In this document: positions 24,714 to 40,868 of the stretch, piece by piece
Numbering within the stretch: the first letter of the stretch is position 1
Layout: the number at the start of each line of letters is the position of its first letter
IMG/VR virus record: IMGVR_UViG_3300017752_000002
DNA: 64,000 nucleotides
Source of the DNA: a virus
Direction: 5' to 3' (one strand)
Translations under genes and position numbers: made by a program
Notes under the pieces: model-generated
The model's database searches: none
Told to the model about the DNA's origin: nothing
The model's input: the letters and a program-made list of their open reading frames with translations, nothing else

Positions 24714-24726
24714 ATATCGTAAAAAA

Positions 24727-24733
24727 CTAAATA
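24727..24733 (+). promoter_or_regulatory. Late promoter CTAAATA (gp18)
   Basis: Intergenic upstream of gp18. Confidence 0.65.
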
Positions 24734-24795
24734 AAAGCATGAGAGTTAAATAAGCTCTCACTGAATTTAATAATTCATTTAATAAGGAGAAACAA

Positions 24796-26472: not shown

Positions 26473-26475
26473 ATA
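26469..26475 (+). promoter_or_regulatory. Late promoter CTAAATA (gp19)
   Basis: Overlaps gp18 stop, upstream of gp19 RBS. Confidence 0.6.
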
Positions 26476-26496
26476 GAATAAAAGGAGAAAAAACAA

Positions 26497-27090
26497 ATGG
26501 CTAATATTGCTGATTTTAAAGCTAACATGACTGGTGGCGGAGCTCGTCCTAATCAGTTTCGTGTAGATTTGGCTTTCCCTTCTTATGTCACTGGTGGAAG
26601 AGTTGCTGCTGTACAAGGACAGTTTCTTTGCAAAGCTGCACAATTACCAGCTAGTACATTAGAAAACTTGCCAATCCAATATAGAGGTCGTGCTGTAAAC
26701 TTTGCTGCTGAGCGTACTTTCGCTCCTTGGACAGTCACAGTTTATAACGACACTGACTTCGGTATTAGAAACGCAATCGAAAGATGGCAAAATGGTATTC
26801 AGGAATATGCGACTACAGAAGGTCGTACTAATCCGAATGATTACCAAGCTGACTTACTTGTAACACAACTAGATAGAAATGGTGCTGGAGTAAAACAATA
26901 TAAATTTGTTGATGCTTACCCACTGTCTATCGGTATTGTTCAGTTGGATTATGACACTACAAATGCTATTGAAACATTTGATGTTGAATTCCAATACAAC
27001 TTCTTTACAAGTAATACAAGCGAAAGTGGTGGATTAGGAGTTAATATATCAATCGATACTCCGATTGGTTCATTCCCAATCAACATTTAA
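26497..27090 (+). CDS. gp19: Tail tube protein gp19
   Basis: GGARPNQF, FLCKAAQLPAS, RTFAPWTVTVYND motifs. Confidence 0.95.
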   Translation: MANIADFKANMTGGGARPNQFRVDLAFPSYVTGGRVAAVQGQFLCKAAQLPASTLENLPIQYRGRAVNFAAERTFAPWTVTVYNDTDFGIRNAIERWQNGIQEYATTEGRTNPNDYQADLLVTQLDRNGAGVKQYKFVDAYPLSIGIVQLDYDTTNAIETFDVEFQYNFFTSNTSESGGLGVNISIDTPIGSFPINI

Positions 27091-27113
27091 TTATTAATAA
27101 AGGTGAATAAATT

Positions 27114-28661
27114 ATGGCTGAATTTTTCGGTTTCGAGATTACACGAAAGAGGAATAGAGAACCACTAAGTCCTGTCGCTCCATCAAAAGATGATGGCTCG
27201 ACAGTCCTTACAGATGTAAGTGCTTACTATGGGGTCACCCTCGATTTAGATAACTCGATAAAAAGTGAAAACGCTTTAATCAAAAGATATCGTGAAGTTG
27301 CTCAATATCCAGATTGTGATGGTGCGATAGAAGATATAACTAATGAAGCAATCACAATTGAGACTGACGCACCCAGTGTCAGTTTAAGTCTTGACGACTT
27401 ACCTGTATCCGATAATATTAAAGATAAAATGCATGAGGAGTTCGAGGAGATCTACGATCTGCTTCAGTTCGACCATAAAGGGCATGATATTTTTAAGACT
27501 TGGTATGTAGATGGAAGATTATACTACCATTTAATTGTAGATCCTAAAAATCCAAAGTTGGGTATTCAGGAACTAAGGTATGTAGATCCACAAAAGATTC
27601 GTAAGATTAAAAATATTAAGAAAAAGAAGAATCAACAAGGGATCGAGGTAGTAGAAAGTCAAGAAGAATACTTTATATACAACGATAAAGGTATTACTGA
27701 CTCAAATACTAAAGGAATTAAACTGAGTAAAGACTCAGTTGTATTTTGTCCATCTGGTAATGTTGACCAAAATACTGGCATAGTATTGGGTCATTTACAA
27801 AAAGCTGTTAAACCAGTAAACCAGTTGAAGATGATTGAGGACGCTGTAGTCATTTATAGACTAAGTCGTGCTCCTGAAAGAAGAATATTTTATGTTGATG
27901 TAGGAAACCTGCCTAAGATAAAAGCAGAACAATATGTCAACGATATCATGAATAAGTATCGAAACAAAGTAGTTTACGATGCGAATACAGGTGAAGTAAG
28001 AGACGATAGAAAACACCTAAGCATGATGGAAGATTTTTGGATGCCTAGAAGAGAGGGTGGTCGTGGTACAGAAATTACTACACTTCCTGGAGGGCAAAAC
28101 CTTGGAGATATAGCAGACATACAATATTTCCAAAGGAAACTTTACCAGTCACTTAATGTGCCTATGTCAAGATTACAAGGTGAGACTGGATTTACTTTAG
28201 GTCGTGCTTCTGAAATTACTAGAGACGAATTAAAGTTTAACAAATTTGTTCAGAGAGTTCAAAGAAAATTTAGTCAGGTACTGATTGATATTCTTAGAGT
28301 TCAGTTAATTGCTAAGGGAGTAATGACTGAAGAAGATTTTGAAGAAAGCAGACATCATATAAGAATCGATTTTCTACAAGATAATCACTTTACTGAATTA
28401 AAGAATAACGAGTTGCTACAACAACGAGTTGGTATGCTAGGGCAGATTGAACCATACCTTGGCAAGTTCTACTCATTAGAGTGGGCAAGAAGAAATATTT
28501 TAATGCAATCTGAAGAAGAGATGAAAGATATCGACGACCAGATTGAAGCAGAAAAAGCTGAACAGGAACAGGATACTGACCAAGGTGGGGAAGTCCCTGA
28601 TATGGATAGTATGCAGTCTGAACCAGCTGATGATAATGAAGGAGAAGAAGATGGGAACTAA
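27114..28661 (+). CDS. gp20: Portal protein gp20
   Basis: IYRLSRAPERRIFYVDVGNLPK and EDFWMPRREGGRGTEITTLPGGQNLG motifs. Confidence 0.97.
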   Translation: MAEFFGFEITRKRNREPLSPVAPSKDDGSTVLTDVSAYYGVTLDLDNSIKSENALIKRYREVAQYPDCDGAIEDITNEAITIETDAPSVSLSLDDLPVSDNIKDKMHEEFEEIYDLLQFDHKGHDIFKTWYVDGRLYYHLIVDPKNPKLGIQELRYVDPQKIRKIKNIKKKKNQQGIEVVESQEEYFIYNDKGITDSNTKGIKLSKDSVVFCPSGNVDQNTGIVLGHLQKAVKPVNQLKMIEDAVVIYRLSRAPERRIFYVDVGNLPKIKAEQYVNDIMNKYRNKVVYDANTGEVRDDRKHLSMMEDFWMPRREGGRGTEITTLPGGQNLGDIADIQYFQRKLYQSLNVPMSRLQGETGFTLGRASEITRDELKFNKFVQRVQRKFSQVLIDILRVQLIAKGVMTEEDFEESRHHIRIDFLQDNHFTELKNNELLQQRVGMLGQIEPYLGKFYSLEWARRNILMQSEEEMKDIDDQIEAEKAEQEQDTDQGGEVPDMDSMQSEPADDNEGEEDGN

Positions 28662-28890
28662 AGAATTAATAGATGCTATTCAGTCAGGTGATGCTGAAGG
28701 AATAGAAAGTACTTTCCAAGGTGTAATGTCTGCGAAAGTTGGAGATAAATTAGACACGATGAAGAAAGAAATGGCTTCAACTATGTTTAAAACTCCAGAA
28801 GAACAGGATGAGATTGCTGGTGAACCAGAACAACCTGAAGTACCAGCTGAACCAGTAGAGGAACCAGCTGAGAATGTCGAAGAAGTTTAA
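28651..28890 (+). CDS. gp67: Prohead core protein (gp67-like)
   Basis: Acidic small ORF after portal; ATG at 28651 with GGAG RBS. Confidence 0.6.
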   Translation: MGTKELIDAIQSGDAEGIESTFQGVMSAKVGDKLDTMKKEMASTMFKTPEEQDEIAGEPEQPEVPAEPVEEPAENVEEV

Positions 28891-29281
28891 AGATATCTAT
28901 ACTCATACGATTACTTCGACTGAGGAGCGAGAACAACAGCTAGTAGATAGTATTGATGTTCTTCTACCTGAAGAAAGAGTTGCTGAATATATAGCGAAAC
29001 ACTCAGATGATATTATTACTGATGAGTTGGTTGAGTCATATATTCAAAAAGCATCGTCAACTGACTTTAATGTTGACCCAATCATAACTGAGATTAAGGT
29101 TGGACAAGCAAAAGAATTAAGAAATAAACTAGATTATGTATTAAAAGATGGTACGAAGATCGCAATTAGCGAGGAAAACCAAATTTTACTAAATAGTTTA
29201 CTGAAAGACAAGGATGAGATTGTTTCTCATATGTCGGAGAATAAAAACAACTTTATCGAAGTTTTAAAAGGAGTGTACTAA
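28874..29281 (+). CDS. gp68: Prohead core protein (gp68-like)
   Basis: Position between gp67 and gp21; weak sequence support. Confidence 0.5.
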   Translation: MSKKFKDIYTHTITSTEEREQQLVDSIDVLLPEERVAEYIAKHSDDIITDELVESYIQKASSTDFNVDPIITEIKVGQAKELRNKLDYVLKDGTKIAISEENQILLNSLLKDKDEIVSHMSENKNNFIEVLKGVY

Positions 29282-29692
29282 ATGGCAATAACGAAAACAG
29301 TTCTGGCAAAAGATAATCGTAAAGCTATCGTCAGAGTCACTGCGACTGGTACTAATGAGAATGTCACTATTGATATCGACGCAGACTTAAAATTAACAAA
29401 CGAAACGATTACTACTTCTGCTCTTAAAGTTGCCATACAGAAAATCGAGTACAGCTGTGAAGCTGCAAAAGATATTACTGTTGTAAGAAACTCTGTCCTC
29501 GTGGCTACTGTTCATCCAGGAGCACCGAAAATTGAAACATCGATACAGGATGAAGGCAACCAAGATATTGTTGTCACATTTGGTGGCAAAGGTATGATAC
29601 TTCTTCATCTTTCTAAAATGGGTGGATTTAATGACCCAGTAGAAACTCCTGAGTTTGGAGCTTACGATGACCAAGATGCGGTAGGAAGCTAA
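29282..29692 (+). CDS. Hypothetical head-module protein
   Basis: 136 aa ORF with GGAG RBS; a CTAAATA lies upstream at 29189. Confidence 0.65.
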   Translation: MAITKTVLAKDNRKAIVRVTATGTNENVTIDIDADLKLTNETITTSALKVAIQKIEYSCEAAKDITVVRNSVLVATVHPGAPKIETSIQDEGNQDIVVTFGGKGMILLHLSKMGGFNDPVETPEFGAYDDQDAVGS

Positions 29693-29693
29693 T

Positions 29694-30350
29694 ATGAAAT
29701 TAATTAAAGAACATACAGAAGTTGTAAACTACCTTATCGAAGAAGATAAAGAAACTGGTAAGAAGAATTACAACATTGAGGGAGTATTCCTCCAAGCTGA
29801 TATTAAAAACAGGAATGGAAGATTATACCCTACAGAGATTCTTGACAAAGAAGTTAAAAGATATGTTAAAGAAAATGTCAAGAAAAATCGTGCGTATGGT
29901 GAGTTAGGACACCCTGATTCTCCAACTATCAATTTAGATAGAGTATCGCACATGATTAAGGATTTGAAGCTAGAAGATAAAAACTTTATCGGAAAAGCTA
30001 AGATAATGGATACACCTTATGGTAAGATTGTTAAATCGTTGATTGACGAAGGAGCAAGTCTAGGTGTATCTTCTAGAGGGATGGGTTCATTGAAAACTAC
30101 CAAAGACGGAACTTCAGAAGTCCAAAAGGATTTTATGCTTGCCACTGCTGCTGATATAGTTGCAGATCCGTCGGCACCAGATGCATTTGTACGAGGTGTT
30201 ATGGAGGGCAAGGAATGGATGTTCGTTGATGGGAAGTTTGTCGAGCAAGATATTGATGCTATAAAGAGTTCAATAACTAAGGCAACAAGATCTCAACTCG
30301 AAGAAGCAAAACTTTTCGCATTTGCGAAGTTTTTAAAGAAAATACAATAA
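29694..30350 (+). CDS. gp21: Prohead protease gp21
   Basis: IEGVFLQA..KNRNGRLYP, GELGHP, LGVSSRGMGS, DIVADPSAPDAFV. Confidence 0.97.
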   Translation: MKLIKEHTEVVNYLIEEDKETGKKNYNIEGVFLQADIKNRNGRLYPTEILDKEVKRYVKENVKKNRAYGELGHPDSPTINLDRVSHMIKDLKLEDKNFIGKAKIMDTPYGKIVKSLIDEGASLGVSSRGMGSLKTTKDGTSEVQKDFMLATAADIVADPSAPDAFVRGVMEGKEWMFVDGKFVEQDIDAIKSSITKATRSQLEEAKLFAFAKFLKKIQ

Positions 30351-30372
30351 CCCATACTTTAAGGAGACAAAC

Positions 30373-31542
30373 ATGTCAAGTATAGAACAAAAAATCGCAG
30401 AACTCCTTGGTGAGAGTAAGAAAGCTGAAGAGCAAATCGATACTCTTGAGGAGTCTGAAGGCTGGAAAAAATCTAGCGATGAAGCTGAAGCTGAAGCACC
30501 TGCTGAAGAAGTAGTGGCTGAAGAAGAAGCACCAGCTGAGGAAGAGGTAGAAGAAATCGAAGAGGGTGAATTACCACCTGCTTTGAAGAAAGCTATCGAA
30601 AAGAAAAAGAAAAAAGATGGCGACGACGATGACGACGACGACGACGATGATGACGATGATGAAAAGTCTAAAGATAAAGAAAAAGACGAATCATATATGA
30701 CATCTTCTAAAAAGAAAGAGAAGATGAAAGATATGAAAAAAGAAGAATCTGAGTCTGACGAAGAAGTTGTAGCAGAAGAAGCTGAAGAAGATGAAATCGC
30801 AGTAGATGTTTCAGAAGATGTTGAAGCATTATTAAATGGCGAAGAACTTTCTGAAGAGTTCAAAGAAAAAGCTACTACTATATTCGAAACTGTAGTTGTA
30901 TCTCGTGTTAAAAGCGAAGTCGCTAAGTTTAAAAAAGAATTATCTGAGTCTAATGCTGTTGCAATAGACGAAGCTAAAGAGAGTCTAGTTGAAAAAGTTG
31001 ATGGATATCTCAGCTATGTAGTTGAGCAGTGGATAAGTGAAAATGAAATCGCTCTCGAATCTGGTATGAAGTCGGAGATTTTAGATGGCTTCATTAATGG
31101 TATGAAAAATCTGTTCGCTGAACATTATGTTGATGTTCCTGAAGACAGATTTGACTTACTTGGAGACGCTCAAGAAAAGGTCGAAGAATTAGAGAAGAAG
31201 CTCAATGAGCAACTTGAAGCTAATGTCGAACTTAACAAGAGTGTAAAAGCTATGGAGAAGGACGAAGTCCTTTCTAAAGCATCCGATGGTATGGCTGAAA
31301 CTGATAAAGAAAAATTTGCTGGATTAACTGAGGATCTCAGTTTTGAAGACAAAGAATCTTTTGAGAAAAAAGTCAGCACTATCAGAGAATCTTACTTTGC
31401 TTCTAAACCAAGCAAAACAAATGTAGAAACTGTTGTTACTGATGAGCCAGTACAGTTAGAAGAAGAAACTAAGAAGTCTATTTCAGACCCTAAAATTTCT
31501 GCTTATGCTGACATGCTTGACAGAAGCAACAAAAATAATTAA
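30373..31542 (+). CDS. gp22: Prohead scaffold protein gp22
   Basis: Acidic; ELSEEFKEKATTIFE and YLSYVVEQW motifs; between gp21 and gp23. Confidence 0.92.
   Translation: MSSIEQKIAELLGESKKAEEQIDTLEESEGWKKSSDEAEAEAPAEEVVAEEEAPAEEEVEEIEEGELPPALKKAIEKKKKKDGDDDDDDDDDDDDDEKSKDKEKDESYMTSSKKKEKMKDMKKEESESDEEVVAEEAEEDEIAVDVSEDVEALLNGEELSEEFKEKATTIFETVVVSRVKSEVAKFKKELSESNAVAIDEAKESLVEKVDGYLSYVVEQWISENEIALESGMKSEILDGFINGMKNLFAEHYVDVPEDRFDLLGDAQEKVEELEKKLNEQLEANVELNKSVKAMEKDEVLSKASDGMAETDKEKFAGLTEDLSFEDKESFEKKVSTIRESYFASKPSKTNVETVVTDEPVQLEEETKKSISDPKISAYADMLDRSNKNN
30620..30663 (+). repeat. GAY trinucleotide run encoding poly-Asp in gp22
   Basis: gacgacgatgac... run after a poly-Lys stretch. Confidence 0.8.
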
Positions 31543-31568
31543 TCTATCAACTTTAAGGAGATATAAAA

Positions 31569-32834
31569 ATGGATAGAAAATCATTAATGGAAAAATGGTC
31601 ACCTATTCTGGAACACGAAGGTGTTGCTCCCATCAAAGAGAATTACAGAAAAGAAGTCACTGCTGTCCTTCTAGAGAACCAAGAAAAGGCGATCAAAGAA
31701 GAAAAGCAAGCGATGTTCGAAGCTGTTCATGTCAATGATGCTGCAGCTCTTCCTGACACAGGTGGTGTGGCTAAATTTGATCCAGTACTAATTTCTTTAG
31801 TACGAAGATCTGCTCCGCAAATGATCGCTTACGATATTTGTGGTGTACAACCTATGACTCAGCCTACTGGTCTTATCTTTGCTATGAAAGCAAGATACAG
31901 CACTCAAGGTGGTACTGAGGCATTATTTAACGAAGCTGACTCAGACTTTTCTGGTGCAGGTACTCACGCAGGATCTAATCCTGTTGATGGCACTTACACT
32001 ACTGGTACTGGTATGACTACTGGTGCTGCTGAGGTACTTGGTGACGGAAGCACATTCCAAGAAATGGCTTTCTCAATCGAGAAAACTTCAGTGACTGCTA
32101 AGTCTAGAGCACTGAAAGCTGAGTACACTATCGAACTAGCACAAGACTTGAAATCAGTTCATGGTCTTGACGCTGAGGGCGAACTTTCTAATATCCTCTC
32201 TACTGAAATTCTTTCAGAAATTAACAGAGAAGTTATCAGAACTGTGTACAAAACTGCTAAGCCAGGAGCTCAAACTGGAACAGCTACTGCGGGAACTTTC
32301 GACCTAGATGTTGATGCATCTGGTAGATGGTCTGTTGAAAAATTCAAAGGTTTACTCTTCCAAATCGAAAGAGAAGCTAATGCGGTTGCTCAGCAAACTC
32401 GTAGAGGTAAAGCTAACTTCATCATCTGTTCTTCAGATGTTGCTAGTGCTTTAGCAATGGCTGGTGTATTAGATTACGCTCCAGCTCTATCAACTAACCT
32501 AAATGTAGATGAAGCTTCTACAACTTTTGCTGGTGTTCTTAATGGACGCTACAAAGTGTATGTAGATCCTTATTCAGCAAATGGTGCTGCTAGTCAGTAC
32601 TTTGTAGTTGGATATAAAGGTACAAGTGCATTTGACGCAGGATTATTTTACTGCCCATATGTACCTCTACAATTAGTTAGAGCAGTAGATCCTTCAACTT
32701 TCCAACCAAAAATTGGTTTCAAAACAAGATATGGCTTCACAGCTAATCCGTTTATCCAATTGGATGGTTCTGGCGATCTAGTAGCTGACGAAAACTACTA
32801 CTACAGAAGAGTTAAAGTTACAAACCTAATGTAA
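31569..32834 (+). CDS. gp23: Major capsid protein gp23
   Basis: LLENQE, GVQPMTQPTGLIFAM, SRALKAEYTIELAQDLK, FQPKIGFKTRYG. Confidence 0.98.
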   Translation: MDRKSLMEKWSPILEHEGVAPIKENYRKEVTAVLLENQEKAIKEEKQAMFEAVHVNDAAALPDTGGVAKFDPVLISLVRRSAPQMIAYDICGVQPMTQPTGLIFAMKARYSTQGGTEALFNEADSDFSGAGTHAGSNPVDGTYTTGTGMTTGAAEVLGDGSTFQEMAFSIEKTSVTAKSRALKAEYTIELAQDLKSVHGLDAEGELSNILSTEILSEINREVIRTVYKTAKPGAQTGTATAGTFDLDVDASGRWSVEKFKGLLFQIEREANAVAQQTRRGKANFIICSSDVASALAMAGVLDYAPALSTNLNVDEASTTFAGVLNGRYKVYVDPYSANGAASQYFVVGYKGTSAFDAGLFYCPYVPLQLVRAVDPSTFQPKIGFKTRYGFTANPFIQLDGSGDLVADENYYYRRVKVTNLM

Positions 32835-32864
32835 TCTTAACCTTTTAAGGTACAATCCTGAAAA

Positions 32865-32891
32865 GGGGAGCTTCGGCTCCCCTTTTTTTTT
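32865..32891 (+). terminator. Rho-independent terminator after gp23
   Basis: GGGGAGC-TTCG-GCTCCCC followed by T9. Confidence 0.95.
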
Positions 32892-32893
32892 GA

Positions 32894-32900
32894 CTAAATA
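32894..32900 (+). promoter_or_regulatory. Late promoter CTAAATA driving the riboswitch unit
   Basis: Just after the gp23 terminator, 5 nt before the aptamer. Confidence 0.65.
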
Positions 32901-32905
32901 ATTAT

Positions 32906-33026
32906 ATCGTTCATTCACTCTAAATGTAGCAGTGGACGGAAGTAAGTAGAATAGGAAAACCTCTCACGCAAGTGAGGTAAGCTAGTACCGAAAGGGAACG
33001 AGACCGACAATCTACCGAAGGAACGC
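32906..33026 (+). ncRNA. Glutamine riboswitch (glnA-motif class) with extended P3
   Basis: ATCGTTCA ... GACGGAAGTA ... CGAAGGAACGC core; P1 CGTTC/GAACG, P2 CAC/GTG, P3 GTAGA/TCTAC; upstream of a YRG peptide. Confidence 0.85.
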
Positions 33027-33089
33027 AATAGGTGAATAGAATTGCGCAGTTTTATTCAAAGATCAACCTATTACAATCTGGAGGAAACG

Positions 33090-33254
33090 ATGACTACTTT
33101 CTACAGAGGTATCAAAGTCACTGATGAAAATGTCGCCAAGGATAATAAATTGTCCAAAAAAGGTGGTATTTACAGAGGGATTAAACATGGTGCCATATCT
33201 AAAGAGAGTGTAAAAGTCGCTACTGGTTTACAGTATCGTGGCATAGCACACTAA
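33090..33254 (+). CDS. YRG-repeat peptide (DUF4278-like), 54 aa
   Basis: GGAGG RBS; FYRGIK, IYRGIKH, QYRGIAH. Confidence 0.85.
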   Translation: MTTFYRGIKVTDENVAKDNKLSKKGGIYRGIKHGAISKESVKVATGLQYRGIAH

Positions 33255-33262
33255 CTTTAATT

Positions 33263-33309
33263 GGAGGGCAAGTATTATATTCTTATAACCAACTTGCCCT
33301 TCTTTTTTT
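33263..33309 (+). terminator. Terminator after the YRG peptide gene
   Basis: GGAGGGCAAGT / ACTTGCCCTTC stem followed by T7. Confidence 0.75.
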
Positions 33310-33310
33310 A

Positions 33311-33317
33311 CTAAATA
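33311..33317 (+). promoter_or_regulatory. Late promoter CTAAATA
   Basis: Directly after the terminator T-run. Confidence 0.6.
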
Positions 33318-33380
33318 ATTTCGGTGGTTATAAAAATTTATTTTTTTATAACTAAATGTAAACACTTAATAGGAAAAACC

Positions 33381-33521
33381 ATGTCCACAGTTATTAAATT
33401 AACGAAGAGCATGGTGCGAAAAACCAAAGCATTTGCCGAATTTCTAGCATACATTGCTCTTCCTTTAGGATTCCCAGTTGCCACATTCGTGACGATGCGA
33501 ATGAGTTATTTTGGATACTAA
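33381..33521 (+). CDS. Small membrane protein (46 aa)
   Basis: AGGA RBS; hydrophobic FLAYIALPLGFPVATFV segment. Confidence 0.55.
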   Translation: MSTVIKLTKSMVRKTKAFAEFLAYIALPLGFPVATFVTMRMSYFGY

Positions 33522-33675
33522 AGAAAAACCTACAAAAACTCACGAGGACGATGTCGACTTTATGGTCGAGAACCCCATGCTATATATGGTATTATTACCA
33601 TCCCTAGTCGCCATCGTTCCTCCTACTCTCGCAGTCGCAGCCATCTGGTTCCACCAATATTATATCGGTATATAG
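33511..33675 (+). CDS. Small membrane protein (TTG start, 54 aa)
   Basis: Own translation: LDTKEKPTKTHEDDVDFMVENPMLYMVLLPSLVAIVPPTLAVAAIWFHQYYIGI; overlaps previous stop. Confidence 0.5.
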   Translation: MDTKEKPTKTHEDDVDFMVENPMLYMVLLPSLVAIVPPTLAVAAIWFHQYYIGI

Positions 33676-33687
33676 ATTTCAAAAGAC

Positions 33688-33694
33688 CTAAATA
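33688..33694 (+). promoter_or_regulatory. Late promoter CTAAATA
   Basis: Intergenic, upstream of GAGG RBS of 33712 ORF. Confidence 0.6.
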
Positions 33695-33711
33695 GTAATA
33701 TCGAGGATATT

Positions 33712-33852
33712 ATGTCTAAGTTGATTGAAATATACGAACAAGCGATTGACTGGTTTCAAGTCAAGTTCGAGATAGATTATTACCAACTCATTTTCATGGC
33801 ATTTTTGCTAGGACTTGCTGTTGGTTTACTTGCTCTCGGGATACTGTTATGA
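33712..33852 (+). CDS. Small membrane protein (46 aa)
   Basis: GAGG RBS; MSKLIEIYEQAIDWFQVKFEIDYYQLIFMAFLLGLAVGLLALGILL. Confidence 0.6.
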   Translation: MSKLIEIYEQAIDWFQVKFEIDYYQLIFMAFLLGLAVGLLALGILL

Positions 33853-34001
33853 ATAAAAGTTTATTAAACGATATAGAAAATCTTGATAAGATTATAGATA
33901 AAACATCTGACCCACGATTGAAGCAAATGTGGAAAGATAAAAAGGATCTTAAAAAGAAAATCGAACAAAGAGAAAATGGCACCAGAAGAACTACTAGCTA
34001 A
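33849..34001 (+). CDS. Small basic helical protein (50 aa)
   Basis: ATGA overlap; MNKSLLNDIENLDKIIDKTSDPRLKQMWKDKK... Confidence 0.5.
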   Translation: MNKSLLNDIENLDKIIDKTSDPRLKQMWKDKKDLKKKIEQRENGTRRTTS

Positions 34002-34116
34002 AAGAATTGCTAAACTACAAAGAGTTCTAGATCGGGCACAGAATAAACAATTTAAAAATATGTGGGCATCTCATTTGGCTCACCTAAAATTACTACAAAA
34101 GAGGAAAGTTAATTGA
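33976..34116 (+). CDS. Small basic helical protein (46 aa)
   Basis: MAPEELLAKRIAKLQRVLDRAQNKQFKNMWASHLAHLKLLQKRKVN; overlaps gp3 start. Confidence 0.55.
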   Translation: MAPEELLAKRIAKLQRVLDRAQNKQFKNMWASHLAHLKLLQKRKVN

Positions 34117-34643
34117 CTGCATATTCTAATAAATTCCCTACCGATATATCCCCATTAAATCCTAATGGCTTTACTTTTGATGTAGCCAGATTACCAGATA
34201 CTACATTCTTTGTACAATCAGTTGGATTGCCAGGACTTACTTTGGGCGAGTTTATGCAACAAACACCTTTAGTGGCTAACCCTATTCCTGGAGAAATACT
34301 CACATACCAAGAACTTGTAGTCGAGTTTCAAGTAGATGCTAACATGACAAACTGGAAAGCAATACATGACTGGATGATTGGACTTGGGTTCCCAATAAAT
34401 CATGAGCAATATTTGTCATACCTTACCTCTGAGGAAAGAGCGAAGATTTCCGAAATATCACAAAACTTCTCAGATGCTACACTTCAGGTATTATCTGGAC
34501 AAAACCAACCTGTAAAAACATTCACATTTGTTGATTGTTTTCCTACAGCACTAGAGCCGATTCAGTTTGAAGCTAAGATGCAAGATGTTATGATGGTTTC
34601 TACTCGTGCAACCTTTAAATATACCTATTACTACTGCCAATAG
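34113..34643 (+). CDS. gp3: Tail tube terminator/completion protein gp3-like
   Basis: FFVQSVGLPGLTLG, VDANMTNWKAIHDWMIGLG, FVDCFPT motifs; position before uvsY. Confidence 0.8.
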   Translation: MTAYSNKFPTDISPLNPNGFTFDVARLPDTTFFVQSVGLPGLTLGEFMQQTPLVANPIPGEILTYQELVVEFQVDANMTNWKAIHDWMIGLGFPINHEQYLSYLTSEERAKISEISQNFSDATLQVLSGQNQPVKTFTFVDCFPTALEPIQFEAKMQDVMMVSTRATFKYTYYYCQ

Positions 34644-34646
34644 ACC

Positions 34647-34675
34647 TTTACTTTTAAGAATAAATCAACTAAGAT
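34647..34675 (+). promoter_or_regulatory. Sigma70-type promoter (uvsY)
   Basis: TTTACT-17-TAAGAT. Confidence 0.65.
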
Positions 34676-34699
34676 TAAGTTGTTAGGAGTATAATTTAT

Positions 34700-35137
34700 A
34701 TGAATTTACAACAATTACAAGACGAATGGTCAAAGGACTCGATAGTCGATGACGACCACTTAGATAAAGAAGCAGTACGCATCCCAAACCTACACCAAAA
34801 GTATTTAAAGTTCCTGATGGAGTTTAAAATGAAACTTACTAAACAAAGAGCAGAGTTTCATGCACTTCGCAGATTAAAAATACGATATTATAATGGTGAG
34901 TTGGGTCGAGACGAGTTAGTAGAACTGGGTTGGGAGCAATATCAAGGCATAAAACCTATAAAATCAGCTCAAGACGACCTATTACATGGCGATAAAGAGC
35001 TGATAGACCAAACTGTACGCATATCTTATCTTGAAGATATGGTATATGCTACCGAAAGTATCATGAAATCAATCTCAAGTAGAGGTTGGGACATTAAAAA
35101 CTCAATAGAGTGGAAAAAATTTATATCTGGTGCCTAA
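34700..35137 (+). CDS. uvsY: Recombination mediator UvsY
   Basis: LQDEWSKDSIVD...IPNLHQKY...YYNG; IKNSIEWKKF C-terminus. Confidence 0.9.
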   Translation: MNLQQLQDEWSKDSIVDDDHLDKEAVRIPNLHQKYLKFLMEFKMKLTKQRAEFHALRRLKIRYYNGELGRDELVELGWEQYQGIKPIKSAQDDLLHGDKELIDQTVRISYLEDMVYATESIMKSISSRGWDIKNSIEWKKFISGA

Positions 35138-36617
35138 AATAACGATAGAGAAAGCGAGTAATATACATATTCGCTGTTTTTCAGAGCCTGCAGTTGAACA
35201 GGAGCTCTGCGATTATTTTACCTATTCAGTTCCAGGTGCTCAGTTCACTCCACAGTACCGAAGTCGTATGTGGGATGGTAAAATCCGCCAATATGATAGA
35301 ATACGACATACATTATATCTTGGATTATACCGATATGTAGAAAGATTCGCTGTTGAGCGAGGTTATGAGATAGAATGTAAGGATTTAGTAGTAATAGACC
35401 GAAAAATACCCTTTGAAGAGGTCGAAAACTGGGTAAATTCCTTAAAATTAGCATCCAAGGGGCAAAAATTGAGCTCCAGAGAATATCAAGTTGAAGCTAT
35501 ACATAAAGCCATTAATGATGAAAGAACGCTCTTGGTGAGTCCTACAGCGTCTGGAAAAAGTCTAATTATATATTCTACACTTAGATATCTATTAAATCAA
35601 GGCAAAAAAGCTATTATCATAGTACCAACAACATCCTTAGTTGAACAGTTATATAAAGACTTTGAAGATTATTCCACTATAAATGGATGGAATGTAGAGG
35701 ATAGTGTACAAAAATTATACTCAGGATTTACTAAAGATATATCTAAGCAAGTATTAATTACCACTTGGCAGTCAGTATATAAACAACCCAAAGCATGGTT
35801 CGCTCAGTTTGATGTATGTTTTGGTGACGAAGCACATCAGTTTAAAGCTAGATCTTTGACGACTTGTATGGATAAATTAATTAATTGTAATTACAGGATA
35901 GGCACGACTGGTACGATTGATGGAAAGAAAGTTCATAAGCTAGTACTAGAGGGTGTGTTTGGACCAGTCTTTGCTGTCACTACAACTAAAAAATTAATGG
36001 AAGAGAAAAAGGTTGCCGATTTAGATATTACTTGCTTACTATTAAAATATGATGACTTAGATAGACAAGGTAGAAAAAATAATAAGTATGCCGACGAGAT
36101 GGACTTCTTAGTGACTAATGATTATAGAAATAAATTTATAGTAAACTTGGCTGCAGATTTAAAAGGAAACACCTTAGTCTTATATCAGTTCGTTCAAAAG
36201 CATGGGATTCCTTTATATGAAAACCTAAATAAAAAGGTAGATGGTTCAAAGGACATCTGGTTTGTGTCAGGGGACACAGTCGTAAAGGATAGGGAAAAGG
36301 TCAGAGAAATAGCAGGTGATACAAACAACAATATCATAGTTGCTTCTTTTGGTACATTCTCGACTGGCATTAATATACCATCTATCGAAAATATTATTTT
36401 CGCATCGCCAAGTAAAAGTAAGATAAGAAACTTACAATCTATTGGGCGAGGACTTAGACTAAAAGAGGGTAAAGAAACTTGTAATTTGTATGATATAGCT
36501 GATGACCTTTCTTGGAAATCTTGGAAAAATCATACTTTAAAACATTTCAGTGAAAGACTCTCTATATACAGTGAAGAAAAATTTAACTACAAAATAGTAG
36601 AGGTAAATGTTGGATAA
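35130..36617 (+). CDS. uvsW: DNA helicase UvsW
   Basis: SPTASGKS, GDEAH, TTGT, LQSIGRGLR SF2 motifs. Confidence 0.95.
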   Translation: MPKITIEKASNIHIRCFSEPAVEQELCDYFTYSVPGAQFTPQYRSRMWDGKIRQYDRIRHTLYLGLYRYVERFAVERGYEIECKDLVVIDRKIPFEEVENWVNSLKLASKGQKLSSREYQVEAIHKAINDERTLLVSPTASGKSLIIYSTLRYLLNQGKKAIIIVPTTSLVEQLYKDFEDYSTINGWNVEDSVQKLYSGFTKDISKQVLITTWQSVYKQPKAWFAQFDVCFGDEAHQFKARSLTTCMDKLINCNYRIGTTGTIDGKKVHKLVLEGVFGPVFAVTTTKKLMEEKKVADLDITCLLLKYDDLDRQGRKNNKYADEMDFLVTNDYRNKFIVNLAADLKGNTLVLYQFVQKHGIPLYENLNKKVDGSKDIWFVSGDTVVKDREKVREIAGDTNNNIIVASFGTFSTGINIPSIENIIFASPSKSKIRNLQSIGRGLRLKEGKETCNLYDIADDLSWKSWKNHTLKHFSERLSIYSEEKFNYKIVEVNVG

Positions 36618-37101
36618 TCAAAAATTAATTAGGGAAGATGACGAGTTCATTATTCTTAAGCTAACCACAGGGGAAACTCTAGTGGCTACTATCAGAGCAG
36701 ACGCACCTGAAACTATATCTGTACAATATCCCTTTGAATTAAAAACTATTCATGAAAGAAGGCAAGATATGGTAGTAGATGTCACTGCTGCTGCACCATT
36801 CTGTGGTTTCGCAGAAGATAGGAACTTCACATTTAAAAAAGAAGATATTATGTTTACTAAAGTCCTTCATAATTTTTCAGTTCCATTTTATATAGAATTA
36901 GTCGAAGAGTATGAAAAACTCATCGATGTACCAGTACCAAAGAAAAGATTATCTGAAACTCAAGATGTATTACGCAAAACTGCCGAAACTATGAGACAAC
37001 GCAGTGAAGAGATCTTGGGCGAAGACAGACTAGAGGATACAGCAGAAGTGCTTGATTATCTTCTAGGCAACATCGGCAAATCAAAGAAAACAATCCATTG
37101 A
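36607..37101 (+). CDS. Hypothetical protein (Sm-like N-terminus)
   Basis: IILKLTTGETLVA pattern; overlaps uvsW end. Confidence 0.6.
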   Translation: MLDNQKLIREDDEFIILKLTTGETLVATIRADAPETISVQYPFELKTIHERRQDMVVDVTAAAPFCGFAEDRNFTFKKEDIMFTKVLHNFSVPFYIELVEEYEKLIDVPVPKKRLSETQDVLRKTAETMRQRSEEILGEDRLEDTAEVLDYLLGNIGKSKKTIH

Positions 37102-37403
37102 TAAGCATAACTCCAAAAGCTAAACAATACATACAAATCAAACTCAAAGCGAGTGGGAATAAGTACGCACGACTTGCCCTCGATGGTGGAGGTTGTGCTG
37201 GGTTTACTTATAAGTGGGAAGAAACAAACGAAGTCGCCGATGGCACCCTTATTGAAGATACGATTATAGTGGATAAATTAGCAGAGTTATATGTTATGGG
37301 ATCTGAGATTGATTATAAAGAAGATTTCGCAGGATCGCATATCGAGATTATAAATCCGAATGCTACTGGAAGTTGTGGATGTGGAGAATCAGTTGGATTC
37401 TAA
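37098..37403 (+). CDS. iscA: IscA/HesB-family A-type Fe-S carrier protein
   Basis: GGGCAGFTY, GSEIDY, NPNATGSCGCGES signature with three Cys. Confidence 0.92.
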   Translation: MISITPKAKQYIQIKLKASGNKYARLALDGGGCAGFTYKWEETNEVADGTLIEDTIIVDKLAELYVMGSEIDYKEDFAGSHIEIINPNATGSCGCGESVGF

Positions 37404-37434
37404 CAGTCTCGTTATCATCCCTGGAACACCCTGT

Positions 37435-37463
37435 AATCTACTCTTCAGTTTCTTAAAAAGCAA
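37435..37463 (-). promoter_or_regulatory. Minus-strand sigma70-type promoter (antisense to iscA)
   Basis: Reverse complement reads TTGCTT-17-TAGATT with the same TTTAAGAA after -35 as the forward promoters. Confidence 0.5.
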
Positions 37464-37487
37464 GCATTAAATGAAAAAAAATAATAG

Positions 37488-37516
37488 TTGCCTTTTAAGA
37501 ATGTTTTATATAGAAT
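37488..37516 (+). promoter_or_regulatory. Sigma70-type promoter (gp55)
   Basis: TTGCCT-17-TAGAAT. Confidence 0.7.
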
Positions 37517-37538
37517 TATGTTTTGATAGGAGGACTAC

Positions 37539-38090
37539 ATGGCAGTCTCAAAAAAGAAGCCCCAACATTATGTTGATAATAAACAGTTTCTACAAGCACT
37601 AAAAGATTATAAAGATGCTTGTGCTAAGGCGAGCAAAAAGAAACAAGATAAACCTAGAATCCCAGAGTATATTGGTGAATGCTTATTGAAGATTGGTACA
37701 CACCTTTCTTACAAACCTAACTTCATCAACTATACCTATCGGGATGATATGATACTGGATGGTGTTGAAAACTGTATTCAATACATACATAACTTCGACC
37801 CTGATAAATCTGGTAATCCATTTTCATACTTTACGCAAATTATTTTCTATGCTTTTTTACGAAGAATTAAAAAAGAAAAGAAACAAACTTATGTGAAGCA
37901 GAAACTAATTGCTGAGATGGATGTTGATGCGTTCATGGAAGCAGGTGAAGATAGCGAAGGTACTAACCAATATATTGAGTATATGAAAAAGAACCAAGTC
38001 CTTGACCCTTACTTTGAAGCCAAAGAGAAAAAGAAGAAAGAAAAAAAGTCCACACCCATCTCTGATGCGTTGGACGATGTAAATGAGTAA
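37539..38090 (+). CDS. gp55: Late-transcription sigma factor gp55
   Basis: HYVDNKQF, YIGECLLKI, NFINYTYRDDMI, NPFSYFTQIIFYAFLRRI. Confidence 0.96.
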   Translation: MAVSKKKPQHYVDNKQFLQALKDYKDACAKASKKKQDKPRIPEYIGECLLKIGTHLSYKPNFINYTYRDDMILDGVENCIQYIHNFDPDKSGNPFSYFTQIIFYAFLRRIKKEKKQTYVKQKLIAEMDVDAFMEAGEDSEGTNQYIEYMKKNQVLDPYFEAKEKKKKEKKSTPISDALDDVNE

Positions 38091-39150
38091 AGTTGCTATT
38101 ATAACCGATCTACATTTCGGTGCTAGAGGAGATGCTATCACTTTTGTAGATTATATGGATAAATTCTATACAAATACTTTTTTCCCTGCTTTGAAGGAAA
38201 GAGGTATCAAAAATATATTAAATCTTGGTGATACATTCGATCGCCGAAAATACATCAATTACCATTCATTAAAAAGATCTAGGCAGTTCTTCTTTGACCC
38301 TATTAAAGATGCTGGTATGCACATGTGGATGTTGGCTGGTAATCACGATACTTATTATAAGAACACCAACGATACTAATTCTATCGACTTACTATTAAAT
38401 GATTATAAAAATATTACTACTATACCTGAAGCGATGGATATAACAGTTGATGGTCGTGATATTTTTATGCTACCATGGATCTGTACTGACAATTATCAAT
38501 CAAGTATGGAAGCATTAGAGGATAGTAAAGCAGAAATATGTATGGGTCATTTAGAGATAGCTGGTTTTGTAATGCATCGTGGGGTTAAATCTCATGGTGG
38601 TTTAAACGCAGAAAGGTTTAGAAAATTTGGTTTGGTTTATTCGGGTCATTACCATCATAGGAACAACGATGGGCATATATATTATCTTGGGAATCCTTAT
38701 GAATTAACTTGGTCTGATTATAAAGACCCAAGAGGATTTCATATCTGGGATACTGAAACTATGGAACTTGAGTTTATTGAGAATCCATATACTATGTTTG
38801 AAAGAGTAGAGTACGATGATGTGACCAATAATTATGATGACTTTGATGCTAGTATTATGGCTGATAAGTATGTCAAAGTGATTGTAGCTAACAAGTCAGA
38901 CTTTAATAAGTTTGATACATTTATGAAAGGGATTTATAAAGCTGGTCCACACGATGTTAAAATTATCGAGGACTTCGCTGAGTTTAAAGATGGCGAGATT
39001 GATGAAGAGATAAACTTAGAAGATACCATGAATATATTGAATAGTTATGTTGATAGTGTAGAAACAAATTTAGATAAGGAAAAAGTAAAAGGATTCCTTA
39101 AAGGATTATATGCTGAAGCACAACAAACTGAAAGTGAAACTGCTGAATGA
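38083..39150 (+). CDS. gp47: Recombination nuclease gp47 (Mre11/SbcD-like)
   Basis: TDLHFG, LGDTFD, GNHD, SGHYH metallophosphoesterase motifs. Confidence 0.95.
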   Translation: MSKVAIITDLHFGARGDAITFVDYMDKFYTNTFFPALKERGIKNILNLGDTFDRRKYINYHSLKRSRQFFFDPIKDAGMHMWMLAGNHDTYYKNTNDTNSIDLLLNDYKNITTIPEAMDITVDGRDIFMLPWICTDNYQSSMEALEDSKAEICMGHLEIAGFVMHRGVKSHGGLNAERFRKFGLVYSGHYHHRNNDGHIYYLGNPYELTWSDYKDPRGFHIWDTETMELEFIENPYTMFERVEYDDVTNNYDDFDASIMADKYVKVIVANKSDFNKFDTFMKGIYKAGPHDVKIIEDFAEFKDGEIDEEINLEDTMNILNSYVDSVETNLDKEKVKGFLKGLYAEAQQTESETAE

Positions 39151-40868
39151 TTACTTTTGAAAAACTTAAATGGCGAAACCTATTAAGCACAGGAAACGCA
39201 TGGACTGAAGTAGATCTTAATCGTTCTACTACTACATTAATTGTAGGTAAAAATGGTGAGGGTAAATCTACTATCCTTGACGCACTCATGTTCTCTCTGT
39301 TCGGGAGACCTTTTCGTAAAGTAAAAAAAGACCAACTCGTAAATAGTATTAATGGTAAGAATCTCGAAGTAGAGATTGAGTTTATGATTCGTAATAAACA
39401 TTATAAGATATTACGAGGTGCTAAACCGAACAAAGTAGAATTATATGTAGATGGTTTAAAACTAGATTCCTTCGCCAGCAATGCTGATACGCAGACTTAT
39501 ATACAAACTCAAATAATAGGTTTTGATTGGCGAACTTTTAATAAGCTGGTCATTCTAGGATCTGCTAGTTATGCACCATTTATGCAGTTAAACTTATGGC
39601 ACAGGCGACAAGTTATTGAGGACATCTTAGATATCGGTATATTTAGAACTATGAATGAGTTGCTTACTGATAGAGCAAAACTTACTAAAGAACAACTCAT
39701 GAAAGTTGATAATGATATTACTGTCGCTAAACAACAAGTAGATTCTCAGAAAGAATTACTCGAACAATTAAGCAGTGTAAAAGAAGAAGCTGTAGAAAAG
39801 ATAAATGAAAAGATTCGTAATAATGAAGAGTCTATAACCAATATTACTAATTCTATCGAACAACTAATGAAAGATGTTGATTACTTAAATACTCAGATAT
39901 CTGATGGCGACCAAGTTAATAAAGATCTAGAAGAAGCTAAGAAACTATTGGCTGGTTATGATAATAAGAAGTCAGGCATTACTAATGATATTGCTTTCTT
40001 TGAAGATAATGAAGTATGCCCACAATGTGAGCAAGGTATAGAACACGACCATAAGAATAACATCTTAACTAAATTAAACGACAAGCTGGGCAAAGCAAGT
40101 AATCATTTATCTTCCCTAAGTCAAGCACTTGAAAAGCTAAATAAAAGATATGAGGAGATTGCTACTATAAACCAGACCATAATGAGCAAGAACTCAGAGG
40201 TATCTGCTCTCAATCAATCACTCAGTTTGTTGGGTAAAACAAACAAGGATTTAGTAGAAGAACAATCGACTTTAAATATTGATGATGAAAATGTGTTAAC
40301 ACAGAAAGCGAAACTTAAAGAACTAGCACAATCTGCTGTAAAAGCAGTCGAGGAAAAAACGCAAGTTGAAGAACAAAAACAAATTGAAGATGTATCTAAA
40401 ACACTTCTCGCTGAGTCTGGCATTAAAACTGAGATTATTCGCCAGTATCTTCCTATCATTAACAAACTTATCAACAAATATCTACAAGCAATGGACTTCT
40501 TCGTTCACTTTGAACTGGATGAAACATTCAATGAAACTATTCGCTCAAGATATAGGGACGAGTTTACATATGATAGTTTTTCTGAGGGCGAAAAGTTGAG
40601 GATAGATCTAGCAATATTATTTACTTGGAGACAAATAGCCAAGATGAAGAATTCAGTAAATACAAATCTATTACTACTAGATGAAATTTTTGATAGTAGT
40701 ATGGATGCGAGTGGTACTGACTTGTTCCTACAAGTACTAAATGAAATCGGCGAGGGAACAAATGTTTTCGTTATATCTCATAAAGGGGATCAACTTTTTG
40801 ACAAGTTTAGAAGTGTAATTAAATTTGTTAAGAAGAATGATTTTTCATCAATCGAACAAGGAGTATAA
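39147..40868 (+). CDS. gp46: Recombination ATPase gp46 (Rad50/SbcC-like)
   Basis: GKNGEGKS, CPQC zinc hook, FSEGEK signature, LLDEIFD. Confidence 0.96.
   Translation: MITFEKLKWRNLLSTGNAWTEVDLNRSTTTLIVGKNGEGKSTILDALMFSLFGRPFRKVKKDQLVNSINGKNLEVEIEFMIRNKHYKILRGAKPNKVELYVDGLKLDSFASNADTQTYIQTQIIGFDWRTFNKLVILGSASYAPFMQLNLWHRRQVIEDILDIGIFRTMNELLTDRAKLTKEQLMKVDNDITVAKQQVDSQKELLEQLSSVKEEAVEKINEKIRNNEESITNITNSIEQLMKDVDYLNTQISDGDQVNKDLEEAKKLLAGYDNKKSGITNDIAFFEDNEVCPQCEQGIEHDHKNNILTKLNDKLGKASNHLSSLSQALEKLNKRYEEIATINQTIMSKNSEVSALNQSLSLLGKTNKDLVEEQSTLNIDDENVLTQKAKLKELAQSAVKAVEEKTQVEEQKQIEDVSKTLLAESGIKTEIIRQYLPIINKLINKYLQAMDFFVHFELDETFNETIRSRYRDEFTYDSFSEGEKLRIDLAILFTWRQIAKMKNSVNTNLLLLDEIFDSSMDASGTDLFLQVLNEIGEGTNVFVISHKGDQLFDKFRSVIKFVKKNDFSSIEQGV

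Follow-up and report, generated by a model that had tools for sequence, protein, structure and literature searches.

The subject of this study is a small cassette at positions 32894-33309, on the plus strand, of a 64,000-nt stretch of viral DNA (IMG/VR record IMGVR_UViG_3300017752_000002; this whole stretch is referred to as the window). The cassette is probably a nitrogen-status module of host type, derived from SAR86 bacteria and brought under phage late control, in which a glutamine riboswitch gates the synthesis of a mini-protein with three YRG motifs. According to the model proposed here, transcription dependent on the late sigma factor gp55 would begin approximately 6 nt past the heptamer CTAAATA, at the first base of the aptamer, and the resulting RNA of about 400 nt would stop at a terminator at 33263-33309, carrying the gene for a 54-residue YRG protein as its only gene. 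At high glutamine the aptamer would bind its ligand and turn translation of the mini-protein on, as in the cyanobacterial gifB leader, and the product would be made late in infection only when the cellular glutamine pool is high. It may then act like the host copy, as an effector of ammonium assimilation or uptake (with glutamine synthetase, Amt or PII/GlnK as possible targets). The system is ordinary in kind; its variant and its host context are new. Published examples of the riboswitch class itself come from T4-like cyanophages and from phages of the Melnitz and Mosig types (PMC9964418, PMC9004378), and the link with DUF4278 is known from cyanobacteria (PMC6212724).

The window, with a GC content of approximately 35%, comes from a marine T4-like phage and encodes portal, prohead protease, scaffold, gp23, UvsY, UvsW and gp55. 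Among 50,697 phage records there is no close relative of the phage, and neither DNA nor protein comparison with them yielded a relative of the unit. The cassette follows the gp23 major capsid gene (31569-32834; Pfam PF07068 (Gp23), 477 bits), whose transcript is closed by an intrinsic terminator at 32860-32892 with a 12-bp stem (32860-32887), a UUCG loop and a U run (-20.2 kcal/mol, z -3.7). The core of a putative T4-type late promoter, CTAAATA, lies at 32894-32900 and the glutamine riboswitch aptamer of type 1 (glnA RNA, Rfam RF01739) at 32906-33029. Between the aptamer and the ribosome site there is a putative platform hairpin, AATAGGT...ACCTATT (33027-33072), followed by a Shine-Dalgarno sequence GGAGG (33080-33084) 5 nt upstream of the ATG of the 54-aa triple-YRG mini-protein gene (DUF4278). 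This gene occupies 33090-33254, its 54 codons ending at 33251 and its stop at 33252-33254. A second intrinsic terminator at 33263-33309 (stem 33263-33302, U run to 33309) closes the cassette; it folds at -19.9 kcal/mol (z -5.8, none of 200 shuffles being as good), and the letters of its stem vary among relatives with the pairing retained. A preliminary description, made from the letters of this DNA alone, had proposed a self-contained late transcription unit, and the gp23 terminator, CTAAATA, the glnA-class aptamer, the long hairpin, GGAGG and the downstream terminator all lie where it had placed them. Its open reading frame (ORF) was borne out in the length of 54 aa and in the three YRG motifs, but the start ATG is at 33090 and not at 33091. 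The self-contained character stands as well, with terminators on both sides, a putative T4-type late promoter and a phage-encoded gp55 (37539-38090; phrog_234, 216 bits).

In RNA libraries of three studies, contigs were found over the unit; two are exact (32937-33269 and 32932-33226), and others span 32866-33258 and 32997-33257. Those of gp23 are separate from it and end at 32801 in two runs, nothing extends past 33287 in three runs, and unit contigs of three studies end at 33257-33269. This pattern fits a discrete RNA ending at the terminator. Taken together, the two terminators (z -3.7 and -5.8), the presence of gp55, the conserved promoter heptamer and the separate RNA-library contigs speak for the cassette being a discrete unit.

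In regard to the promoter, CTAAATA fits 7 of 8 positions of the late promoter consensus (TATAAATA-like). Its count in the window is at chance level (24 observed, 22.5 expected); 21 of the 24 copies are on the coding strand (21:3), and at least seven stand 6-38 nt upstream of an ORF start. The copy in the cassette is invariant across 11 diverged relatives of the locus. The canonical T4 late box TATAAATA was observed once in the whole window, with approximately nine copies expected. It seems that this phage uses CTAAATA as its late box, and from the geometry of T4 promoters the start, about 6 nt past the heptamer, would be 32906, the first aptamer base. In other viral versions of the cassette TATAAATA can take the place of CTAAATA, and the SAR86 counterpart has sigma-70-like boxes. 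Among the matches listed, TATAAATA or CTAAATA was found upstream in 14 of 17 distinct viral loci of the window type. The phage versions thus appear to have mostly exchanged a host sigma-70 promoter for a T4 late promoter.

The aptamer matches RF01739 at 40.8 bits, above the gathering score of 35, over model positions 1-53 of 53, with an E-value of 2e-5 in the whole window and 1.3e-7 in a local scan. The match is far beyond chance, and the covariance model thereby agrees with the glnA-class assignment in the preliminary description; a type 1 glutamine aptamer ahead of a DUF4278/YRG mini-protein is supported by the RF01739 and Pfam matches. Nineteen related viral loci also exceed the cut-off, relatives reaching 40-55 bits. 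The core strands CGUUCA, ACGGAAGUA and GAAGGAACGC are exact at 32908-13, 32936-44 and 33017-26, and all three are invariant in 16 aligned relatives. Helix P1 pairs 32908-32912 with 33021-33025, the first hairpin pairs 32914-32918 with 32932-32936, and the core runs along 32936-32944 and 33016-33020. Since the core is intact, glutamine sensing would be the default expectation. Relative to the RF01739 model there is an insertion of 65 nt in the last stem, so that the third helix is not the short hairpin typical of the class; the helix GUAGA/UCUAC itself is retained, making the aptamer a variant of type 1.

The last stem (32946-33015, with 32946-50 paired to 33011-15) is extended by a domain of approximately 60 nt that forms a three-way junction. 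It consists of junction strand J1 (32951-32961, containing GAAAACC), inner hairpin a (32962-32977, GCAA loop), strand J2 (32978-32987, of the form ..AGCNAGUA), inner hairpin b (32988-32995, GAAA loop) and strand J3 (32996-33010, containing GAGACCGA). This architecture was compared in 57 distinct aptamers of the same type, parsed at invariant anchors. Six successive positions of hairpin a form canonical pairs in 40/40, 40/40, 40/40, 40/40, 40/40 and 36/36 distinct sequences, with two to three pair types at four of them; in a control with the register shifted by one base, just 6-31 sequences out of about 40 had canonical pairs. Hairpin b has a canonical first pair in 28/29 sequences and a canonical second pair in 29/29 (CG, GC, AU and UA types), and the enclosing stem occurs in 18 distinct combinations. 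The junction strands GAAAACC, AGCNAGUA and GAGACCGA show little or no variation in SAR86 and phages, and the helices around them covary. Judging from these compensatory changes, the extra domain is a real structure, and it is the hallmark of a variant that a set of uncultured marine phages has in common with SAR86 bacteria. No second Rfam family was matched in the insert or the platform, even at a permissive threshold.

A DNA pattern specific for this domain was scanned over 185,579 species, each represented by one genome. Forty-eight species genomes matched, 44 of them labelled as SAR86 cluster, on contigs of up to 797 kb; the others were three Gammaproteobacteria metagenome-assembled genomes (MAGs), one on a 1.14-Mb contig, and one 'Flavobacteriales MAG' contig. 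On this last contig (NZWA01000048.1, 24.9 kb) the expanded aptamer and a triple-YRG ORF are accompanied by a terminator and the CTAAATA box (GTCTAAATA); it looks like a T4-like phage contig mis-binned into a bacterial MAG. In SAR86 the order of parts is sigma-70-like boxes, aptamer, conserved platform, CUGGAGG and a triple-YRG gene of 52-55 aa, and the neighbours are housekeeping genes (TonB receptor, glnK-amt, SpoU, SecDF). The amt gene lies inside the 8-kb locus in 27 of the 48 matched genomes and glnK-amt often adjoins the cassette, in three arrangements, with amt immediately upstream in the same orientation, in convergent orientation, or some 2.3 kb away. More generally, RF01739 is present in 81 of 151 sampled SAR86-order genomes, and in genomes of this order (G006-G271) up to six copies per genome were observed, many of them in tandem pairs at 55-71 bits. 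Because the family is frequent in SAR86, the view of the class as confined to cyanobacteria and unassigned marine sequences is outdated; its occurrence there has been mentioned in passing by one 2025 paper (PMC12379486).

When 16 kb of the window (24000-40000) were compared by BLAST with 266 SAR86-order genomes, only 32880-33220 matched SAR86 chromosomes, besides an acidic low-complexity repeat of 60 nt within the scaffold gene. Over 270-310 nt the matches are 70-72% identical, and in the aptamer they rise to as much as 81%. At the protein level, the SAR86 lineage nearest to the window YRG protein shares 54% identity with it, and two other viral YRG proteins reach 65% and 84% to other SAR86 lineages, above any other viral lineage. 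Overall, viral YRG proteins show 44-84% identity to different SAR86 lineages, and for five of eight distinct viral lineages a SAR86 lineage is no more distant than the closest other viral lineage. Repeated exchange of the cassette is suggested, because some viral proteins are nearer to different SAR86 lineages than to other viruses. On these comparisons the cassette is a SAR86-type module put under a phage late promoter, most likely acquired from a SAR86-like host, and this origin makes SAR86 the best guess for the host of the phage.

Among viruses, 14 IMG/VR contigs encode the peptide at 69-100% identity, and all 13 with upstream DNA have the aptamer (40-45 bits, inserts of 65-83 nt). In their alignment CTAAATA and the aptamer core are invariant and the insert hairpins show compensatory changes; some relatives have a small additional hairpin that follows the promoter and lies 5' of the aptamer. 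When IMG/VR was scanned for the pattern of two core strands, at least 120 stretches with short spacing and at least 117 with long spacing were obtained, and among the matches listed three architectures were found. The first, with a short last stem, stands ahead of YRG proteins and also of numerous unrelated families of micro-ORFs; the second, with a 48-62-nt insert that differs in kind from that of the window, stands mostly ahead of proteins with two YRG motifs; the third is the type of the window, with 62-90 nt and invariant GAAAACCUC, AGCNAGUA and GAGACCGA. An automatic caller found the triple-YRG ORF in 12 of the 17 distinct loci of this third type; three of the remaining five are ORF-caller misses or contig truncations, and two have insufficient downstream DNA. 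In the short-stem group (loci L138-L246) the aptamers are followed by micro-ORFs (26-78 aa) of at least five families unrelated to one another, in some cases after a tandem of aptamers, with motifs such as ..WCY/F.K.., ..NP(F/W)YP, ..INGGGTSGY.. and ..RPR..KN..DPRLQ.I; together they are, as far as can be read from the contigs, a large undescribed set of putative glutamine-gated phage micro-proteins. The second architecture (L021-L137) has within its last stem a GAACG-GAU-CGUUC hairpin and a second inner hairpin resembling a nested partial copy of the aptamer, and mostly precedes 45-aa proteins with two YRG motifs. One contig with an expanded aptamer and a YRG gene (IMGVR_UViG_3300020403_002028, 1848-2164) also encodes a permuted alpha-type transfer-messenger RNA (tmRNA; 112 bits), like Melnitz.

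The closest experimentally studied counterpart is the leader of gifB, which encodes IF17 in Synechocystis sp. PCC 6803 (Klaehn et al. 2018, PMC6212724). It belongs to the same RF01739 family, has the same core strands and three-helix layout, and is likewise located upstream of a small DUF4278-bearing protein; it was shown experimentally to switch expression on as glutamine rises (PMC6212724). In contrast to gifB, the last stem in the window has the conserved 60-nt three-way junction, the 54-aa product contains DUF4278 only, lacking an IF7-like C-terminal part, and the promoter is of T4 late type instead of NtcA-controlled. The carriers here are phage and SAR86, not cyanobacteria. The SAR86 cassettes share with the window identical junction strands, the same family of 52-55-aa proteins and the same CUGGAGG. 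They differ in their sigma-70-like promoters, long first hairpin and proximity to glnK-amt, as well as in the platform, which in SAR86 consists of GAGAAGGGU, a hairpin and then GUACGAAAUC, whereas the window lineage has a platform hairpin of its own.

RF01739 aptamers have also been found in the phages Melnitz (infecting OM43) and Mosig (infecting SAR11), marine T4-like phages (Kyanoviridae) of heterotrophs (Buchholz et al. 2022, PMC9004378), where they score 52.8 and 50 bits, respectively. Mosig has the same spacing from late promoter (ATAAATA) to aptamer as the window. Unlike the window, both have a short last stem, another genome position, and unrelated small ORFs (32 and 51 aa) devoid of YRG behind the aptamer. 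Their riboswitches were assigned to the control of tmRNA (PMC9004378). We observed a good ribosome site approximately 25 nt downstream of each, followed in Melnitz (MZ577097.1, 46398-46446) by a 32-aa ORF starting MTLYQQWCY.. and in Mosig (MT647606.1, 92197-92250) by a 51-aa ORF ending ..DDPRMQGI, and these small ORFs are found again in many viral contigs, downstream of short-stem aptamers. Owing to this arrangement and its recurrence, the Melnitz and Mosig switches more likely control micro-proteins than tmRNA. Another likeness is with the Glutamine-II riboswitch (Downstream-peptide motif, RF01704) of Prochlorococcus and Synechococcus, streamlined marine organisms in which a glutamine sensor likewise stands ahead of a short YRG protein; this riboswitch precedes Yfr6-type DUF4278 ORFs (PMC2864571, PMC6698751). 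It differs in its fold, a pseudoknotted two-stem aptamer, and the Rfam scan gave no RF01704 match at the window cassette.

The mini-protein is basic, and DUF4278 extends over it from end to end (Pfam PF14105, residues 1-53), with a marginal pass of 26.3 bits at a cut-off of 25.3; it matches phrog_5049 at 23 bits, and one SAR86 homologue remains under the DUF4278 cut-off at 23.0 bits. In 56 distinct homologues of 52-55 aa, gaps fall in whole codons, and the sole invariant columns are the three YRG motifs (invariant in 41 sequences). AlphaFold2 places every YRG at the turn of a tiny beta-hairpin (predicted local distance difference test, 69; predicted template modelling score, 0.24). Since an IF7-like region is missing, homology does not support the protein acting as a glutamine synthetase inactivating factor. 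In SAR86, one or two PII genes (PII/GlnK) are present together with a short, 327-aa glutamine synthetase adjoining an NtrB-like kinase (locus L306, G006:C2), and GlnE was absent from all five genomes examined. Nitrogen control in SAR86 would accordingly appear to proceed without adenylylation, and a small inhibitory protein would make sense there.

It is known that the T-loop arginine of PII/GlnK plugs the ammonium channel. The T-loop tip of SAR86 GlnK reads ..TYRGTEY.. or ..SYRGSEY.., and the triple-YRG protein might mimic such loops, its three YRG turns plugging the pores of the Amt trimer or competing at PII receptors. The glnK-amt linkage in three gene arrangements fits this idea, which we nevertheless regard as improbable. 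The likeness comprises three residues, a comparison of the YRG and GlnK profiles aligns YRG to the T-loop at 1.6% probability, and a profile search of Protein Data Bank sequences with the YRG family gave no match. A complex predicted for two copies of SAR86 Amt and the YRG protein of SAR86 itself scored 0.08 (mark 0.32), which counts neither for nor against the idea. If true, such mimicry would represent a riboswitch-gated shut-off of the GlnK-AmtB type with a protein-free sensor, and the phage would halt ammonium uptake or assimilation once glutamine is plentiful.

Concerning the switch, we moderately favour the possibility that glutamine binding turns translation of the mini-protein on, by analogy with the leaders of gifB and of a Prochlorococcus DUF4278 gene, both glutamine-ON according to reporter data (PMC6212724). 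Nearly every viral or SAR86 version retains the sequence CUGGAGG. The platform hairpin (-11.4 kcal/mol, z -2.7) is not a terminator, because no U run follows it; its outer stem covaries in relatives (AAUAGG/CCUAUU, AUUAGG/CCUAAU, CAUUGG/CCAAUG), and the inner stems are wholly different among them, with pairing preserved. When 55 leaders were folded with and without enforced P1, forcing P1 raised the mean predicted openness of the start codon from 0.49 to 0.72, and from 0.73 to 0.96 in the window. In minimum-energy folding of the whole leader the aptamer was not recovered, and the fold was no better than shuffles (z -0.25).

Several points weigh against the proposed explanation. In the same 55 leaders the openness of the ribosome site is unchanged by forced P1 (mean 0.49 vs 0.51), in the window lineage it falls from 0.52 to 0.35, and P1 never forms in minimum-energy folds. 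The 65-nt insert lowers the Rfam score by approximately 10 bits in comparison with short-stem phage aptamers (52.8 bits in Melnitz), and RNA-library contigs cannot prove the start, the end or transcription itself. The host assignment depends on one transferred cassette and is indirect; gp23 contigs present in 4 of the 266 SAR86-order assemblies are just 69-71% identical, and no cassette was found beside the gp23 of those four. Finally, glutamine riboswitches also occur in phages of OM43 (Melnitz) and SAR11 (Mosig). Near-identical phage DNA was not found in the 266 SAR86-order assemblies.

The strongest alternative concerns the switch logic: glutamine could repress the ORF, or act on the lifetime of the RNA instead of ribosome access, for example if a locked 5'-terminal P1 helix shields the RNA from decay that depends on the 5' end. 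This is unlikely, although the predicted transcript start coincides with the first P1 base, so that P1 formation would bury the 5' end, two unrelated platform types occur downstream of the same aptamer, and no conserved anti-Shine-Dalgarno pairing is present in the window lineage. Both tested DUF4278 leaders are glutamine-ON (PMC6212724), and some relatives with the extra hairpin before the aptamer have a 5' end that is already structured. Candidate pairings and folding gave no convincing case of a pairing that conceals the ribosome site in the window lineage. A decoy P1, between GAACGA in the third junction strand and the 5' strand of P1, is weakened in two relatives (GAAAGAG in L085, GAACAGAG in L052). 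Pairing of CCUC, at the start of hairpin a, with GGAGG is a trivial complementarity over which the local hairpin of 6-7 bp should win, and in the modelling the openness of the ribosome site did not change. Pairing of the 5'-end AUCGUU with AACGAU before and into the AUG is present in the window, lost in L009, L011 (AAAGAU), L112, L115, L085 and L088, and hardly populated in the ensemble. Finally, pairing of the start region GAUAU with AUAUC in the 3' strand of the last stem is possible in SAR86 types and absent from the window lineage.

In a further alternative, the three-way-junction domain would serve as a second sensor or bind a protein, making the RNA a two-input device. Invariant junction strands amid covarying helices are typical of a functional pocket or a tertiary module, yet tertiary packing that steers the last stem would explain the invariance equally well, the domain matches no Rfam family, and no candidate ligand is known; we consider this reading doubtful. 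The last stem swings on glutamine binding according to Ren et al., as cited in PMC6212724, and the domain could provide tertiary bracing of this ligand-swung stem, a second ligand site or a protein site.

Still less probable is a cyanophage origin, with Prochlorococcus or Synechococcus as host and the peptide as an IF17-like inactivating factor of host glutamine synthetase. Such an origin would agree with DUF4278 and glutamine riboswitches being best known from cyanobacteria (PMC6212724), with the glutamine riboswitches reported in T4-like cyanophages (PMC9964418), and with gp23, which by tblastn is 62-64% identical to pelagimyophages and many cyanomyophages. However, gp23 is slightly nearer to the OM43 phage Melnitz (66%, the best of these matches) and to the contigs in SAR86 assemblies (69-71%). 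No cyanobacterial genome is found among the 48 species genomes with the aptamer variant, and psbA was not found in five related viral records, all of them incomplete, including one of 117 kb (65% complete) and one of 131 kb (73% complete). Furthermore, short DUF4278-only proteins of this kind are devoid of the C-terminal residues essential to IF17's interaction with glutamine synthetase (PMC6212724). The cyanobacterial frame of the preliminary description is not supported; the same aptamer variant and protein are instead native to SAR86 chromosomes. Least of all do we expect a decayed relic, in which glutamine sensing has been lost through the large insert, leaving the leader as a mere structured 5' untranslated region: the Rfam score is only 5.8 bits over the cut-off, but every core consensus nucleotide is intact, the architecture and its compensatory changes are preserved in 57 distinct sequences from bacteria and phages, and relatives of the same type reach 55 bits.

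Downstream of the cassette, a second CTAAATA at 33311 marks the start of a stretch (33311-34116) with five tiny ORFs, 46-54 aa in length and in several cases hydrophobic, which end before a tail-tube-like gene at 34113. In Melnitz and Mosig gp23 directly adjoins that gene, and because of this the stretch downstream of gp23 can be regarded as an insertion hot spot.

The reading preferred here, a SAR86-type cassette under phage late control, combines known components in a new setting. No description of the expanded-stem variant was found in the searchable literature, which leaves out the original consensus description (Ames and Breaker 2011), and the same literature describes neither the SAR86 home of the cassette next to glnK-amt nor the phage promoter swap. 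A regulatory module thought to be cyanobacterial can now be placed in SAR86 and its likely phages. SAR86 is among the most abundant uncultured heterotrophs of the ocean and is not known to have any cultured representatives. The combination of the expanded-stem aptamer and the triple-YRG gene could serve as a sequence marker linking uncultured T4-like phage contigs to SAR86. In such phages, a metabolite sensor of the host appears to be rewired to the phage's own late promoter, and the phage would thereby read the nitrogen status of the cell during virion assembly.

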